DNA of 4,707 nucleotides, from IMG/VR virus record IMGVR_UViG_2740892370_000009; one strand, written 5' to 3'. Made by a program: the position numbers and the translations under genes. Below the pieces are notes generated by a model. That model saw only the letters and a program-made list of their open reading frames with translations. It had not been told where the DNA came from and searched no databases. Numbering within the stretch: the first letter of the stretch is position 1; each line of letters opens with the position of its first letter. Below are positions 1 through 4,707 of the stretch, piece by piece. Origin of the DNA: a virus (Duplodnaviria; Heunggongvirae; Uroviricota; Caudoviricetes).

Positions 1-2
1 GA

Positions 3-749
3 GTGGCGCTAAACGCGGGGGCATCATCGACAGTATCAGAGGTGCGCCCTTCATCGCCTTCCGGTGCAGAAGCCACAGGCGTCACAACACTGCTCTCTTA
101 CCTTGCCAGCGAGTCAGAGGGAAGCCTGAAAGTACAGGGATGGTCAGCCAGTGGCGGCAGGGCAGAAGTGGTCAGCGATGCGGAGGGAACCGGAGGTAAG
201 GCAGTGAAGCTGACCAAGGAGGCCGGTAAAAGCAGCTGGGTGCTGGAGTACGCCGCGGGCAACGGTGCGGCTCTGTTACAGAAAGGGGGGCAGATTCGCT
301 GCCGCTTTAAGGTTTCGGGAGCGCTGGCTGCGAACCAGTATGTTATGGCGTTTTACTGGCCGGTCTCTTCACTGCCACAGGGCGTTGCCCTGACCGGAGA
401 CGGGGGGAATAACCTGCTGGCAGCGTTCTACATCCAGACAGATGCAAAAGACCTGAATGTGATGTACCACAATGCGAAAGTGGCGACAAACAACCTGAAA
501 CTGGGAACCTTTGGCGCATTTGATAACGAATGGCATACGCTGGCTTTCCGCTTTGCCGGGAATAACAGCCTTCAGGTGACGCCGGTTATTGATGGTCAGG
601 ATGGCACACCGTTCACGCTGACGCAGTCACCGGTCAGTGCCTTTGCGGCGGATAAACTGCATGTGACAGACATTACCAGAGGTGCGACTTACCCGGTACT
701 GATAGACAGCATTGCGGTGGAAGTGAACAGCACAGACACTGCGGCATGA
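3..749 (+). CDS. C-terminal 248 aa of a large late-region protein, 5'-truncated by the window edge; possibly the C-terminal domain of the NanS-p-like esterase family ORF that sits between Q/stx and the lysis genes in Stx-type prophages
   Basis: Open frame running from the window edge with no start codon, ending at TGA 747-749. Gly/Ala/Thr-rich soluble sequence with no hydrophobic segments. The position directly upstream of the holin module matches the large late ORF of Stx-type lambdoid phages. The family assignment is from synteny and memory, not a computed match. Confidence 0.7.
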   Translation: MALNAGASSTVSEVRPSSPSGAEATGVTTLLSYLASESEGSLKVQGWSASGGRAEVVSDAEGTGGKAVKLTKEAGKSSWVLEYAAGNGAALLQKGGQIRCRFKVSGALAANQYVMAFYWPVSSLPQGVALTGDGGNNLLAAFYIQTDAKDLNVMYHNAKVATNNLKLGTFGAFDNEWHTLAFRFAGNNSLQVTPVIDGQDGTPFTLTQSPVSAFAADKLHVTDITRGATYPVLIDSIAVEVNSTDTAA

Positions 750-884
750 TAAAAAAACCGCCATCGACAGGAATGGACGCTGGCGGTGGTGATACCTATG
801 GAGAAAAAATAAAGGAACGATACTTTCGTACTCTGGTTTTTTAATGAAAACAGTTCTTATTGTCAACAATAACGGAAAGAAATT

Positions 885-1064
885 ATGACATTTCTGAACC
901 AGTTAATGCTGTACTTCTGTACGGTGGTCTGTGTGCTGTATCTCCTTTCGGGTGGGTACAGGGCCATGCGTGACGTCTGGCGCAGACAGATTGACAAAAG
1001 GGCCGCTGAGAAAATCAGCGCCAGTCAGTCAGCCGGAAGCAAACCCGAAGAGCCGCTCATTTAG
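885..1064 (+). CDS. Small 59-aa protein with an N-terminal hydrophobic helix and a charged C-terminal tail (hypothetical small membrane protein); too short to appear in the supplied ORF track
   Basis: ATG 885-887 preceded by GGAAAGA (875-881). Hand translation: MTFLNQLMLYFCTVVCVLYLLSGGYRAMRDVWRRQIDKRAAEKISASQSAGSKPEEPLI, stop TAG 1062-1064. A hydrophobic stretch (LMLYFCTVVCVLYLL) followed by a basic/acidic tail is typical of single-pass phage membrane peptides. Confidence 0.45.
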   Translation: MTFLNQLMLYFCTVVCVLYLLSGGYRAMRDVWRRQIDKRAAEKISASQSAGSKPEEPLI

Positions 1065-1104
1065 CGGCAACTTTCTTAATCACACCTTTCGACGAGAAAA
1101 TCCC

Positions 1105-1377
1105 ATGTCAGAAATTACATCCCTGGTCACTGCTGAGGCAGTGAAGGAAGTCCTGCGCTCTGAAGAAGTCCTGAGTGCACTGAAACAAAAACTTCGCCAT
1201 AACCTGGAAGCGCGTCTTGATGCAGAGGTTGATGCCATTCTGGATGAGCTGCTTGGTGTACAGGCAGAGCCACCGACTGAAGCGGGAGATACCACCGCAG
1301 AGAGCGGTGAAGTTCAGCCTGAATCACCGGTCGCCGATGCGACTGAACCTCAACCCGAATCGGTCATGATGCTGTAA
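1105..1377 (+). CDS. Hypothetical acidic 90-aa protein ([52 protein letters not shown]...), predicted helical N-terminus and an acidic Pro/Glu-rich C-terminus
   Basis: Internal ATG at 1105 of the 931..1377 track ORF. The upstream extension (MCCISFRVGTGPC...) overlaps the 885..1064 ORF and looks non-protein-like, so the shorter start is preferred. Weak SD-like GAGAAAA at 1094-1100. Stop TAA 1375-1377. Confidence 0.5.
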
Positions 1378-1388
1378 CGGGGAGTCAG

Positions 1389-1418
1389 GGCCATCAGTAA
1401 ACAGCTGCTGGCCTTTTT
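1389..1418 (+). terminator. Putative intrinsic terminator / attenuator hairpin immediately upstream of the holin gene
   Basis: Stem GGCCATCAG (1389-1397) pairs with CTGCTGGCC (1405-1413), 9 bp with one mismatch, around a 7-nt loop, followed by TTTTT (1414-1418). It lies 36 nt upstream of the holin start. Confidence 0.45.
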
Positions 1419-1453
1419 CATGTTGTGAGCTTCCGGATTGCGGGAGACGGGGT

Positions 1454-1669
1454 ATGTACCAGATGGAAAAAATCACAACAGGTGTGTCATACACCACGTC
1501 AGCGGTGGGAACGGGCTACTGGTTCCTGCAGTTGCTGGACAGGGTTTCCCCGTCTCAGTGGGCGGCAATAGGCGTGCTGGGGAGTCTGCTGTTTGGGCTG
1601 CTGACATATCTGACGAACCTGTATTTCAAGATTAAAGAAGACCGGCGTAAGGCGGCACGGGGAGAGTAA
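1454..1669 (+). CDS. S: Pinholin, phage 21 S21-like, with dual-start motif (71-aa antiholin form from ATG 1454; 68-aa holin form from ATG 1463)
   Basis: RBS GGGAGA (1442-1447) 6 nt upstream of ATG 1454. N-terminus MYQMEK gives Met1 and Met4, the S21 71/68 arrangement. Two transmembrane domains: a weakly hydrophobic Gly/Ser/Thr/Ala-rich TMD1 ([22 protein letters not shown]) and a strongly hydrophobic TMD2 ([23 protein letters not shown]), with a basic C-terminal tail ([13 protein letters not shown]). Stop TAA 1667-1669, 4 nt before the endolysin start. Confidence 0.9.
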
Positions 1670-1673
1670 GCTG

Positions 1674-2207
1674 ATGAGCAGGAAACTCCGCTATGGTTTA
1701 TCGGCTGCCGTTCTGGCGCTGATTGCCGCAGGTGCTTCTGCGCCTGAAATCCTCGACCAGTTTCTGGATGAAAAGGAAGGTAACCACACCACGGCATACC
1801 GTGATGGTGCGGGTATCTGGACCATCTGTCGTGGTGCCATTCTGGTGGATGGTAAACCTGTCGTTCCGGGCATGAAGTTGTCGAAGGAAAAATGCGACCG
1901 GGTTAACGCCATTGAGCGTGATAAGGCGCTGGCATGGGTGGCGAAAAACATCAAAGTGCCACTGACTGACCCCCAGAAAGCGGGTATTGCGTCATTCTGT
2001 CCTTACAACATTGGCCCAGGTAAGTGTTTCCCGTCGACGTTTTATAAACGAATTAATGCAGGAGATCGAAAAGGTGCCTGCGAAGCGATTCGCTGGTGGA
2101 TTAAGGACGGTGGCAGAGACTGCCGTATTCGCTCAAATAACTGTTATGGTCAGGTATCCCGTCGTGACCAGGAGAGCGCTCTGGCGTGCTGGGGAATCGA
2201 CAGATAA
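1674..2207 (+). CDS. R: SAR (signal-anchor-release) endolysin, T4-lysozyme-like muramidase (GH24), phage 21 R21 type
   Basis: RBS GGAGAG upstream of ATG 1674. N-terminus MSRKLRYGLSAAVLALIAAGASA is a basic cap plus an Ala/Gly-rich weakly hydrophobic segment, i.e. a SAR domain. Glu35, Asp44 and Thr50 (EGNHTTAYRDGAGIWT) fall exactly at the T4-lysozyme/R21 catalytic triad positions. There is no Cys in the SAR segment, which suggests the R21-type mechanism and not the P1 Lyz disulfide-isomerisation type. Stop TAA 2205-2207. Confidence 0.92.
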   Translation: MSRKLRYGLSAAVLALIAAGASAPEILDQFLDEKEGNHTTAYRDGAGIWTICRGAILVDGKPVVPGMKLSKEKCDRVNAIERDKALAWVAKNIKVPLTDPQKAGIASFCPYNIGPGKCFPSTFYKRINAGDRKGACEAIRWWIKDGGRDCRIRSNNCYGQVSRRDQESALACWGIDR

Positions 2208-2315
2208 GCAGAATATTTTGCTGAAAAATGACGTTGGCCAGCGCGGGCGGATAACACGAAATCCTGCGAACTGGCAAAATGTAAGTGAATAAAGTTAGGC
2301 AGATTATTTCACGCA

Positions 2316-2347
2316 GAGGCACCGTAATGGTGCCTTTGTCATTTCTG
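2316..2347 (+). terminator. Terminator-like hairpin in the R-ant intergenic region
   Basis: AGGCACC (2317-2323) pairs with GGTGCCT (2329-2335) around loop GTAAT, with a possible extra G-U pair (2316/2336), followed by the U-rich tract TTGTCATTTCTG. The T-run is interrupted, so termination efficiency is uncertain. Confidence 0.35.
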
Positions 2348-2481
2348 CGCTTCGCACAAGCGTAAATAAACCAAAGAACCTTTCAGGATGAGCCCTGGTG
2401 GATAACCGGCAGTGGTCTGGTTAACCCTCTTTGGGCTGGTTATTCCTGTGCGCAGGGTTCATCACTAAAAGGAAATAACCG

Positions 2482-3051
2482 ATGAATATGATGACCGTGC
2501 CGTTTCACGGCGATTCTCTTTATGTGGTTAACCATAACGGCGAACCATACGTTCCCATGAAACCTGTCGTTGCGGGGATGGGGCTGGCCTGGCAATCACA
2601 GTTGGCTAAGTTAAGACAGCGTTTTGCGTCAACTATAACGGAAATCGTTATGGTTGCTGAGGATGGGAAACGACGCAATATGGTGTCCCTGCCGCTTCGA
2701 AAACTTGCAGGCTGGTTACAAACCATCAATCCCAACAAAGTAAAACCCGAAATCCGCGGCAAGGTAATCCAGTATCAGGAAGAGTGTGACGATGTTCTCT
2801 ATGAATACTGGACGAAGGGTTTTGTCGTTAATCCCCGTCGAATGAGTGTGATGGAAGAACTCAATCAGGCTTGCGCTGACATGAAACGGGATAAAAACAT
2901 TGCCAGTGTGTTTGCTACCGGGCTGAATGAGTGGAAACAGGTTAAATCCGCGCATGTATCAAAAATCCGCACATTGATAAACGAAGCGAATCTGCTGATT
3001 GATTTTGTCCTGGCTGATACAGACAAAGGGAAAATAACAAAGGCGGATTGA
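2482..3051 (+). CDS. Phage antirepressor-like protein (Ant N-terminal-domain-like, AntA/P22_AR_N-type), 189 aa, embedded between endolysin and spanin genes
   Basis: RBS AAGGAA (2469-2474) 7 nt upstream of ATG 2482. Soluble protein with no hydrophobic segments. The N-terminal motif MTVPFHGDSLYVV..GEPYVPMKPVVAGMGLAW..QLAKL is what I recall for the N-terminal domain of phage antirepressor (Ant) proteins, and this gene position (between R and Rz) is known from Stx-type prophages. The family call is from memory, not a computed search. Confidence 0.75.
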   Translation: MNMMTVPFHGDSLYVVNHNGEPYVPMKPVVAGMGLAWQSQLAKLRQRFASTITEIVMVAEDGKRRNMVSLPLRKLAGWLQTINPNKVKPEIRGKVIQYQEECDDVLYEYWTKGFVVNPRRMSVMEELNQACADMKRDKNIASVFATGLNEWKQVKSAHVSKIRTLINEANLLIDFVLADTDKGKITKAD

Positions 3052-3200
3052 TGGAGTGGTGGCTAATGATATCGGATAAACTCATAACGCTGGCGAAGAT
3101 CCTCTGTGTAATCGTCGGCATTTCATTTTTAGTCATTCTGGTTGCCATTTTCTTTTCCACCGCTTGGCGAGTCCTGACGTTATCGGGACTGGTGGGGTGA
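3051..3200 (+). CDS. Candidate small hydrophobic membrane protein (49 aa; alternative start at ATG 3066 gives 44 aa)
   Basis: Its ATG (3051-3053) overlaps the ant stop TGA (3049-3051) in an ATGA coupling arrangement. Hand translation: MEWWLMISDKLITLAKILCVIVGISFLVILVAIFFSTAWRVLTLSGLVG, stop TGA 3198-3200, 7 nt before the Rz start. One strongly hydrophobic helix. It fills what would otherwise be a 156-nt gap in a tightly packed cassette. Below the ORF-track size cut-off. Confidence 0.4.
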   Translation: MEWWLMISDKLITLAKILCVIVGISFLVILVAIFFSTAWRVLTLSGLVG

Positions 3201-3207
3201 AAGAGAG

Positions 3208-3675
3208 ATGAACCGTGTTCTGTGTGTGGTGATTATTGTCCTGCTGGTAGCCTGTGGTGCACTTAGTCTGGGGCTGAATCATTACCGCGATAACGCCATA
3301 ACCTACAAAGAGCAGCGCGATAAAAAAGTCAGTGAGCTGGAGCTGGCAAATGCAACCATTACTGATATGCAGCAGCGCCAGCGTGATGTTGCTGCACTTG
3401 ATGCCAGATACTCGAGGGAATTAGCCGATGCGAGAGCTGAAAATGAAACTCTGCGTGCTGATGTTGCCGCTGGTCGTAAGCGCCTGCGCATCAACGCCAA
3501 CTGTCCAGGCTCCTTGCGTAAAGCCCCCATCACCTCCGGCGTGGATAATGCAACCGGTCCCCGACTGGCAGAAGCCGCTGAACGGGATTATTTCATCCTC
3601 AGAGAACGGCTGATGGCAATGCAGAAGCAACTGGAAGGAGCACAGGAATATATCCGTACCCAGTGTATACCGTGA
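3208..3675 (+). CDS. Rz: Rz inner-membrane spanin (i-spanin), 155 aa
   Basis: N-terminal transmembrane helix (MNRVLCVVIIVLLVACGALSLGL) followed by a long charged, predicted coiled-coil periplasmic domain (QRQRDVAALDARYSRELADARAENETLRADVAAGRKRLRI...). Contains an out-of-frame embedded lipoprotein gene, as lambda Rz does. Stop TGA 3673-3675. Confidence 0.9.
   Translation: MNRVLCVVIIVLLVACGALSLGLNHYRDNAITYKEQRDKKVSELELANATITDMQQRQRDVAALDARYSRELADARAENETLRADVAAGRKRLRINANCPGSLRKAPITSGVDNATGPRLAEAAERDYFILRERLMAMQKQLEGAQEYIRTQCIP
3428..3613 (+). CDS. Rz1: Rz1 outer-membrane lipoprotein spanin (o-spanin), 61 aa, embedded in the +1 frame of Rz
   Basis: MRELKMKLCVLMLPLVVSACAS has a signal peptide with lipobox V-S-A-C. 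The mature part is Pro-rich (CVKPPSPPAWIMQPVPDWQKPLNGIISSSENG), closely resembling lambda Rz1 as I remember it. It lies entirely inside Rz (3208-3675) in a different frame. Translation may start at ATG 3428 or ATG 3443. Confidence 0.85.
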   Translation: MRELKMKLCVLMLPLVVSACASTPTVQAPCVKPPSPPAWIMQPVPDWQKPLNGIISSSENG

Positions 3676-4138
3676 TGTTTTGTTACGAAGGTGTTACTGG
3701 TAACGTTAAGGTAATTTAACAAAGAGTCAGTTCCGGACTTTATAGTGTGCTCAGTTCATGGCCAAAAACGATTTCTGTGATAAATATTTTGAATATTATT
3801 TACAGGTAAATGGAGTGGGGCGCATGGATAGAAATATTACAATAGAGTATGAAGTATATGCCCGTATTGTATGGGCAGAGAAGGCAAAAACATGGTAATT
3901 CCGTGTGTTGCCATGATACCTGATTGGCAGAATTGTTGTTTGGTTTTGAGTATATAGTCAGCGTCTTTTGTTCGGTAATTGCTCTTTCAATTAAAATGCC
4001 AGATATGATTTGCTTTTCTTTGTTGTTTAGTTTTTTTGTATATTATTTTTATTGTTTTTATATAATTAGTTTTTTATTGTTGTCTTATTAAGGACGGTAA
4101 ATTCAGGATGGCAGTCTGTAGATAAACGGAGGTTACTT
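3676..4138. promoter_or_regulatory. AT-rich non-coding island (about 460 bp) upstream of the PerC-like gene; probable promoter / H-NS-type silencing region of a horizontally acquired moron
   Basis: No ORF of 61 aa or more on either strand. Composition shifts sharply from the flanking genes: 4021-4080 has only 7 G/C in 60 nt. Contains T-tract/A-tract repeats (e.g. TTTTTATTGTT recurring at about 4044 and about 4071) typical of curved DNA. The downstream gene has its own strong SD. Exact -35/-10 boxes cannot be assigned confidently by eye. Confidence 0.45.
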
Positions 4139-4453
4139 ATGCTACATGATCACCTGGCAGAATGTCTGGAGAAAAAAGGACTGTACCGGAGAGCAGCTGA
4201 ACGATGGGCAAAAGTGATGGTACAGCTAAGTGATGACCAGAAAAGAAAAGTGGCGGCACAGAAACGAGCAGAGTGTTTGCGTAAGGCGCGCCGGACTCCG
4301 GTTTCACCGGTGAACCTGACCGAAATAAAACAAGCGGTCAACAGACTACATTCTGAGTTGGGAATGGGATTTGAAGAGCGGCGGGTATTCCGACGATATA
4401 AAGGGACAGGAGAACAGAATACGTCCGGAAACGCGCGGTCAAAAAAATGCTAA
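4139..4453 (+). CDS. PerC-family-like transcriptional regulator (Pch-like prophage-encoded regulator), 104 aa, basic
   Basis: Strong RBS GGAGG (4128-4132) 6 nt upstream of ATG 4139. Small, highly basic protein (MLHDHLAECLEKKGLYRRAAERWAKVMVQLSDDQKRKVAAQKRAECLRKARR...). Size, charge and the RAAERWAKV-type N-terminal motif match what I recall of PerC/Pch regulators, which in enterohaemorrhagic E. coli are carried on lambdoid prophages downstream of the lysis genes. Stop TAA 4451-4453. Product assignment is moderate confidence; the CDS itself is well supported. Confidence 0.7.
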   Translation: MLHDHLAECLEKKGLYRRAAERWAKVMVQLSDDQKRKVAAQKRAECLRKARRTPVSPVNLTEIKQAVNRLHSELGMGFEERRVFRRYKGTGEQNTSGNARSKKC

Positions 4454-4490
4454 AAAATATCTGAGAGAGTTATTGCCTGTTACCATAAGA

Positions 4491-4516
4491 AAAAGCGACT
4501 TTAGTGGTCGCTTTTT
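4491..4516. terminator. Putative bidirectional intrinsic terminator downstream of the PerC-like gene
   Basis: AAAAAGCGAC (4490-4499), loop TTTAGTG, GTCGCTTTTT (4507-4516): a short GC stem (GCGAC/GTCGC) flanked by an A-run on one side and a T-run on the other, so it is symmetric and could terminate in either direction. Confidence 0.45.
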
Positions 4517-4678
4517 GTGTCATATATAAGTCGTTTAAGTAAACCTGTCTGAACAGGTGCTCTGGTCGTGTTTGTCTTTGTTGGGTACAAATTGAGAATA
4601 TTTTTCATTAATTAATCTTCTTCTGCAGGCTTCAATAACCCACGCTTAGACTGGCCCCCTGAATCTCCAGACAACCAG

Positions 4679-4698
4679 TATCACTTAAATAAGTGATA
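4679..4698. repeat. Perfect 8-bp inverted repeat with 4-bp spacer (TATCACTT-AAAT-AAGTGATA); candidate protein-binding site
   Basis: Read directly from the sequence at the 3' end of the window. The dyad symmetry is typical of a dimeric DNA-binding-protein operator. Its context is cut off by the window edge. Confidence 0.4.
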
Positions 4699-4707
4699 GT
4701 CTTAATA

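Follow-up and report, generated by a model that had tools for sequence, protein, structure and literature searches.

The window analysed here, 4707 bases of late-region DNA from a lambdoid E. coli prophage that resembles Stx phages, very probably carries a pch cassette with the pchB allele, which has its own host-controlled promoter and its own terminator, encodes a LEE activator, and probably also receives late read-through. The gene, its position, and its function are already known, and the copy described here is an ordinary one of the well-studied pchB, which ranks among the best-known cargo genes of EHEC prophages. Its identity and family, as well as the borders, composition, terminator, and conservation of the cassette, were determined by the comparisons reported below.

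Phage context and borders of the cassette

The window begins with the C-terminal part of a NanS-p-type esterase gene (DUF6645, 3-749), which is followed by genes for DUF1378 (885-1064) and DUF826 (1105-1377), the P21-type holin gene S (1454-1669), the lysozyme gene R (1674-2207), an Ant-like antirepressor gene with a P22_AR_N domain (2482-3051), a membrane ORF of 50 codons (3048-3200), and Rz (3208-3675), within which Rz1 is embedded (3428-3613). A preliminary description of this DNA had placed the pch gene 3' of the lysis genes, and the order S-R-ant-Rz/Rz1-pch agrees with that placement. Between the lysozyme gene and Rz (2208-3200), a 274-bp gap is followed by the Ant-like gene and the membrane ORF, which split the lysis cassette of the window, as they do in many Stx phages. 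The first 3653-3665 bases of the window are similar to 396 phage records, mostly of Stx-converting phages, at 90-97.5% identity, and the similarity of these records ends at 3653-3665. The closest complete genome is that of strain 2011C-4315, which is 99.8% identical over 3600-4707, including the final IS2 end. A search of the pch gene and its neighbours with PADLOC returned no defence-system match.

The borders of the cassette were located by comparison with Stx2a_WGPS2 (locus L086), a phage without pch. BLASTN similarity to this genome spans positions 3512-3665 of the window and restarts at 4625, and the 959-bp pch cassette (3666-4624) takes the place of 465 bp that lie between the Rz and DUF3950 genes of Stx2a_WGPS2, in which Rz is followed by a 362-bp gap and then by DUF3950. 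The left neighbours in that phage (Ant, small ORF, and Rz/Rz1) are those of the window, and the right neighbours (DUF3950, HNH, and TerS) are those of the pch locus. Presence or absence of a cassette between the same flanking genes is the pattern of a moron, and in the window it is found, with identical flanks, together with a terminator belonging to the cassette and a deviant G+C content. Positions 3666-4624 are a cargo (moron) module between the lysis and the DNA-packaging genes, and the moron-type character suggested in the preliminary description is upheld by the presence and absence in related phages, the composition, the terminator, and the ability of a homologous upstream fragment to drive a reporter.

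The same comparison bears on the proposal that the AT-rich region in front of the gene is a phage packaging site (cos, with IHF bends) and does not serve pch regulation. The region does sit between lysis and terminase genes, which is where cos is located in lambda. This proposal is extremely unlikely and was rejected, since the region lies inside the cassette, and that cassette is absent from related phages that have the same HNH-TerS-TerL packaging genes; moreover, the region accompanies pch in three prophages whose packaging modules differ and at a locus that adjoins tRNA genes.

In the prophages Sp4, Sp11, and Sp14 of E. coli O157:H7 Sakai, pch is located directly after Rz and ahead of the packaging genes. 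Of 5426 complete E. coli genomes, 673 (12%) contain the module (3760-4530); together they have 1881 copies (median of 3 per genome), and all copies were annotated as ‘PerC family transcriptional regulator’. In the phage collection, no complete phage genome with pch was found, and two short fragments were the only matches. At two IMG/VR loci, the module is joined to other DNA, namely to a tRNA gene cluster at approximately position 3750 of the window (L062, at about 2440-2640) and to unrelated sequence at approximately position 3698 (L039, at about 1850-2050). These two junctions indicate that the module is able to move or persist without the lysis genes.

The pchB gene, its terminator, and the adjoining IS2 end

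The pchB gene occupies positions 4139-4453 on the plus strand and encodes a protein of 104 amino acids with a pI of 10.3 and 25 lysine and arginine residues versus 12 aspartate and glutamate residues. A GGAGG Shine-Dalgarno (SD) sequence is located at 4128-4132 on the same strand, 6 nt 5' of the ATG, and is kept in all four aligned loci; the small basic protein with a strong SD of its own that had been described from the sequence was thus seen correctly. The protein matches the PerC profile PF06069 with a score of 148.8 bits (cut-off of 22.6 bits; E-value of 5.4e-44), and residues 1-89 align to positions 1-89 of the 90 in the model, which is the whole model. A full HMMER scan yielded 84 representative clusters; 75 of them were aligned, and all 75 pass PF06069. 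The core residues of the family in this alignment (D4, A7, L10, E11, G14, R17, R18, A19, A20, R22, W23, and C46) are all present in the protein of the window.

Comparison with the proteins of strain Sakai gave 104 of 104 identical residues for PchB (ECs_2182) and 103 of 104 for PchA (ECs_1091). The assignment to the PerC/Pch family that had been proposed on first reading, together with a similarity search as the means of checking it, is therefore supported both by the match over the whole PF06069 model and by the complete identity to Sakai PchB, and it can be sharpened to the pchB allele of PchABC, the group 1 pch genes of EHEC within the PerC family. The pchA, pchB, and pchC genes differ only at nucleotides 16, 172, and 183 of the 315-bp coding sequence (PMC5931665), and the window has C, G, and C at these sites (4154, 4310, and 4321), which is the pchB state by the definition of that study. 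Over the 1-kb locus, three differences from Sakai pchB were counted in about 1010 aligned nucleotides. The exact protein sequence occurs on at least 1000 contigs and is named ‘PchABC family transcriptional regulator’ in UniRef.

Conservation of the coding sequence and of the upstream region was assessed in 85 pch loci, which comprise 59 distinct sequences. Only 7 of the 315 sites in the coding sequence are variable, and the variation is synonymous at five of the seven. Judged from these counts, the coding sequence appears to be under strong purifying selection, and the upstream region is variable by contrast.

A hairpin of the form A5-stem-loop-stem-T5 is located at 4490-4516, between the convergent pchB and DUF3950 genes, and was identified as a bidirectional intrinsic terminator. 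Its stem comprises 10/11 bp. The plus-strand fold has an energy of -14.7 kcal/mol (z-score of -4.2), with none of 200 shuffled sequences as stable, and the minus-strand fold has an energy of -11.9 kcal/mol (z-score of -3.8). The element is invariant among the Sakai pch paralogues. A consensus terminator scanner overlooked it, since the stem is lengthened by pairing between the A and T runs. The terminator that the preliminary description had attributed to the gene is accordingly present.

The minus-strand gene beyond the terminator belongs to the DUF3950 (YlcI/YnfO) family, and only its 3' part (4535-4646) remains in the window, since it is cut by an IS2 element whose left end occupies 4647-4707 on the plus strand. 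The window diverges from uninterrupted loci at 4647, and the uncut gene is found in locus L002 at 8936-9160, which corresponds to positions 4535-4759 on the scale of the window. In locus L001, the IS2 transposase gene lies directly downstream, and DUF3950 is a truncated pseudogene beyond IS2. The same IS2 insertion is present in strain 2011C-4315, and the DUF3950 gene is intact in most other pch loci.

The upstream region and the transcription of pchB

The regulatory gap between the end of Rz (3675) and the start of pchB (4139) comprises 463 bp (3676-4138, plus strand) and has a G+C content of 0.333 (33%), compared with 0.515 for positions 1-3675 and 0.492 for the pchB gene. The G+C content is 0.117 over 4021-4080, and the minimum for the whole window, 0.10, is reached in the 60-bp windows starting at 4019, 4031, and 4032. 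The gap of roughly 460 bp with a sharp drop in G+C noted earlier is therefore real. The lowest values (10-12%) belong to an AT-rich patch at 3981-4075 (plus strand), which is rich in T-tracts, including five T-runs, and contains degenerate repeats of about 22-25 nt. Among the 59 distinct loci, this patch is the most variable part of the cassette. It exists as two allele classes that are 59-74% identical (approximately 67%), and the flanking DNA is 93-100% identical; the B type is found in the window and in Sakai pchB, and the A/C type in Sakai pchA and pchC. The only gap segment free of variation is an AT-rich element of 43 nt at 3763-3805 (plus strand), which shows no variable site among the 59 distinct pch loci and, on the basis of this conservation, may be an operator or promoter element.

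The invariant element forms the start of a 46-codon ORF (3758-3898, plus strand), the remainder of which varies freely. That this ORF is a real small-protein gene co-transcribed with pchB, which would make the gap coding, is quite improbable. It does match PHROG 2157 over its full length (E-value of 2e-37), is unbroken in the majority of the 85 loci, and appears in some deposited genomes under the name ‘hypothetical protein’, but PHROG 2157 may merely mirror the repeated annotation of near-identical prophage DNA, RefSeq makes no call, and there is no SD-like sequence within 20 nt 5' of the ATG. Furthermore, the 59 distinct copies contain 22 nonsynonymous versus 5 synonymous variants, distributed 9/12/5 over the three codon positions with no third-position excess, and one copy has lost the start codon and two are frameshifted. 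The ORF probably represents no functional protein gene; as it lacks coding constraint and is uncalled in RefSeq, the gap is most likely non-coding, as the preliminary description had it. A search of the window against Rfam returned a chance snoRNA-like match alone (E-value of 0.79).

Promoter searches gave few candidates. A sigma-70 consensus scan of 3500-4707 found no promoter, and a position-matrix scan of the gap found weak candidates only, none of them convincing and none shared by the two allele classes. A perfect TATAAT at 4061-4066 is missing from the pchA and pchC alleles, and a weak TTAACA-19-TATAGT pair at 3716/3741 is kept in all four aligned loci. For promoter activity and its regulators, we rely on the literature. 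The primers published for ‘PpchA’ (PMC10101121) map to 3641-3661 and 4118-4138, so that the homologue of the cloned fragment is 3641-4138. In E. coli BL21, sfGFP is expressed from this fragment at a high basal level and is induced by butyrate (PMC10101121), and the same native pch promoter was employed for reporter work in PMC7279287. These published assays concern the pchA allele, whose AT patch is about 67% identical to that of the window. The reporter work settles the existence of a pch promoter, and, the fragment tested being the pchA homologue, this would extend to the window by analogy. The inputs reported for pch are LrhA, Lrp/butyrate, LeuO, and NtrC, and pch is expressed and host-regulated in uninduced EHEC (PMC4456613, PMC13012123).

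The position of the promoter within the gap depends on the role assigned to the AT patch, which could be either promoter DNA or a U-rich leader. If the promoter were near 3716-3760, the patch (3981-4075) would be a U-rich 5' leader that exerts its effect through the RNA (via stability, binding of Hfq or an sRNA, or translation) and would be neither a promoter nor an H-NS nucleation site. We consider this possible but doubtful. It would fit the location of the sole never-varying gap segment (3763-3805) and the retention of the weak pair at 3716/3741 in the four aligned loci. The region needed for LrhA activation, which would likewise suit such a leader, was reportedly placed by Honda et al. in 2009 about 400 bp 5' of the pchA start codon. 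Post-transcriptional control of pchA (PMC7769764) is a further point in favour of a leader. However, the natural locus in which the module is joined to tRNA genes at about 3750 is without positions 3716-3746, conservation within the cassette is lowest in the patch, which a functional leader would not usually show, Rfam contains no matching family, and the leader fold is no more stable than shuffled sequences.

The last of these points comes from the analysis of published translational control. In pchA, mRNA structure hides the SD and blocks translation, and pairing of the sRNA DicF in the coding region relieves the block (PMC7769764, PMC7873438). Folds of the pch leader and early coding sequence that pair the SD region were no more stable than shuffles (z-scores of -0.6 and -0.9), and when Sakai DicF was scanned along the pch mRNA by duplex energy, 34 of 100 shuffled DicF sequences scored as well; no DicF site is claimed. 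DicF genes (RF00039, 75-77 bits) are present in Sp4 (L003, 733-784, minus strand) and Sp11 (L004, 46582-46633, plus strand), alongside pchA and pchB, which places the published activator sRNA and its target on one element; DicF was not found in the scanned stretch of Sp14. The sRNA STnc100 (RF02076) occurs in all three pch-carrying Sakai prophages (L003, 14746-14936; L004, 33710-33882; L005, 31951-32123), where it adjoins the prophage tRNA genes and lies 5' of the large nanS-p-like ORF in front of the lysis genes. Just 5' of the prophage tRNA genes is a gene for an AraC-type regulator, ECs_1087 in the case of Sp4, which we take to be perhaps PsrA/B-like. Co-occurrence of psr and pch genes has been described (PMC10877973).

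Transcription may also reach pchB from the late operon. The gene is co-oriented with this operon, and no hairpin plus T-run was found between Rz and pch, so that late read-through probably occurs upon prophage induction. We infer that Q-modified late transcription probably runs into pchB after induction, in addition to transcription from the gene's own promoter. After SOS induction of strain PA20, log2 values of 1.74 for pchB, 2.99 for pchC, and -0.33 for pchA were reported (PMC5931665). In Sakai Sp4, the holin-R-Rz-pchA block (L003, 17131-21376) is inverted relative to the Q antiterminator gene, which is not so in Sp11 and Sp14. The PA20 response, in which pchB and pchC rise and pchA does not, is consistent with read-through, the inversion having been read in Sakai. 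Copies of IS629 and ISEc8 flank the inverted block.

Carried further, the same observations would make pchB the last gene of the late (lysis) operon, with no independent unit and with expression on induction only. Its orientation is that of S-R-Rz without an intervening terminator-like hairpin, its transcript rises with that of pchC in PA20, and the scans of the gap found no consensus promoter. We nevertheless regard such exclusive dependence on the late operon as very unlikely, because the homologous gap fragment is sufficient for reporter expression in phage-free strains (PMC10101121, PMC7279287), pch transcription answers host regulators in uninduced lysogens (PMC4456613, PMC13012123), Sakai pchA is functional although inverted relative to Q (PMC4764244), and the cassette has a composition and a terminator of its own. 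The favoured reading remains a host-controlled promoter supplemented by read-through; the independent transcription proposed in the preliminary description stands insofar as the homologous fragment is active alone, and it has to be qualified insofar as late transcription is probably added to it.

The AT-rich composition had also prompted the suggestion of silencing by H-NS, which for pch itself is plausible from base composition alone. Matches to TCGWTWAATT, a high-affinity H-NS motif, were not enriched (15 matches versus 12.9 expected). In the literature examined, no documentation of H-NS occupancy or silencing at the pch promoter was found; the statement in PMC4764244 on phage-borne virulence genes and H-NS is general and not specific to pch. 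The cloned pch promoter fragment is leaky, with its high basal activity in BL21 (PMC10101121).

Related systems and the action of Pch

The closest known counterpart is Sakai PchB (ECs_2182, Sp11), which has the identical protein, the same type of AT patch, leader, and terminator, and the same site behind Rz. The two loci differ in that the packaging module of the window is HNH-TerS-TerL (HK97-like) and its DUF3950 gene is cut by IS2, whereas the terminase of Sp11 is lambda-like. Sakai PchA (ECs_1091, Sp4) and PchC (ECs_2737, Sp14) share 99% of the protein sequence, the cassette, the SD, the terminator, and the site behind Rz; PchA differs by L6V and PchC by V58M, both have the other AT-patch allele (approximately 67% identity), and the pchA block is inverted in Sp4. 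Like bor of lambda, a classical moron at the lysis/packaging junction, pch is an additional gene 3' of Rz that is present in some phages and absent from relatives, and that has a deviant composition and a terminator of its own; bor, however, encodes a lipoprotein and is transcribed against the late operon, whereas pch encodes a regulator and runs in the direction of that operon.

PerC of the EPEC plasmid pEAF belongs to the same Pfam family and has the N-terminal motif AExLExxGLYRRAAxRW, and PerC and Pch are both LEE1 activators (PMC4764244, PMC4456613). In contrast to the prophage cassette of the window, EPEC PerC is plasmid-borne and is encoded by the third gene of perABC, behind the AraC-type PerA. 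PerC-family members are 28-53% identical to the protein of the window, and EPEC PerC is a distant one.

A further likeness is to the ANR family (Aar and Rnr; NF033650), with which PchB appears to share a three-helix N-terminal core. Of the 75 PerC representatives, 70 match the ANR model NF033650 below its cut-off (best E-value of 2e-8), over nearly the whole of its 54 positions. The protein of the window reaches 13.6 bits (E-value of 0.046), short of the cut-off of 32 bits; as far as sequence can tell, it is related to the ANR family and is no member of it. Some PF06069 proteins are named ‘ANR family’ by NCBI, so that the sequence link is implicit in the databases, and in the ANR literature examined, PerC/Pch were not discussed as ANR relatives.

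An AlphaFold2 model of PchB, built from the alignment of the 75 representatives, has a pLDDT of 84, and of more than 95 for residues 1-50. It contains helices at 5-12, 16-29, and 33-50 and a fourth at 61-73, followed by a disordered basic tail. A sequence search found no solved structure for PchB, and comparison of the model with the PDB gave no fold match at an E-value of 0.001 or less and no likeness to a helix-turn-helix. A phage ‘ANR family transcriptional regulator’ superposes at 0.6 Å rmsd on residues 1-44 of the model, with an E-value that is non-significant, as is expected for so short a domain. From the profile matches and the model, the three-helix core of PerC (residues 1-50, nucleotides 4139-4290) appears to be common to the ANR family. 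At 12 kDa, the protein of the window is larger than the ANRs, which measure 4-10 kDa (PMC10148876), and it adds the fourth helix and the basic tail after the core. Members of both families influence virulence genes that H-NS controls (PMC4764244, PMC10148876). ANRs are anti-activators that act by protein-protein contact, whereas Pch activates and reportedly occupies DNA.

For the function of the protein, we again draw on published work. PchA, PchB, and PchC activate LEE1/ler, and PchB gave the highest ler::lacZ expression among five Pch proteins (PMC5931665). Pch occupies LEE1, reduces H-NS/StpA binding, and de-silences virulence loci together with Ler (PMC4764244); besides LEE1, other AT-rich virulence loci are also bound by Pch. 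In the mechanism that we propose, the 463-bp AT-rich gap would supply pchB with its own host-controlled promoter (LrhA, Lrp/butyrate, and NtrC), the strong SD would provide for translation (in pchA it is masked by the mRNA structure that DicF opens), the bidirectional hairpin would end the pch transcript, and read-through from the late operon would add pch transcription after prophage induction. Pch at LEE1 and at other AT-rich virulence loci would then lower the occupancy by H-NS/StpA and lead to de-silencing.

ANRs contact AraC-type activators, H-NS, and Ler (PMC10148876), and the likeness to them suggests a protein-contact component in Pch action. We tentatively put forward, as a rather unlikely extension, that Pch de-silences LEE1 partly via direct contact with H-NS/StpA or Ler and that the AT-patch alleles are exchangeable promoter cassettes. 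If the former were true, Pch would not be purely a DNA competitor, and if the latter were true, the pch paralogues would differ in regulatory input according to their AT-patch allele. The dimorphic AT patch may also underlie the reported differential regulation of pchA versus pchB.

The modest residual value of this locus lies in the position of the promoter, in the dimorphic AT patch, and in the PerC-ANR likeness, which offers a testable mechanism based on protein contact. PchA, PchB, and PchC feed into the LEE virulence programme of EHEC as master inputs, and the presence of a pchB copy makes it likely that the host belongs to an attaching-and-effacing lineage and that the prophage is relevant to its virulence.
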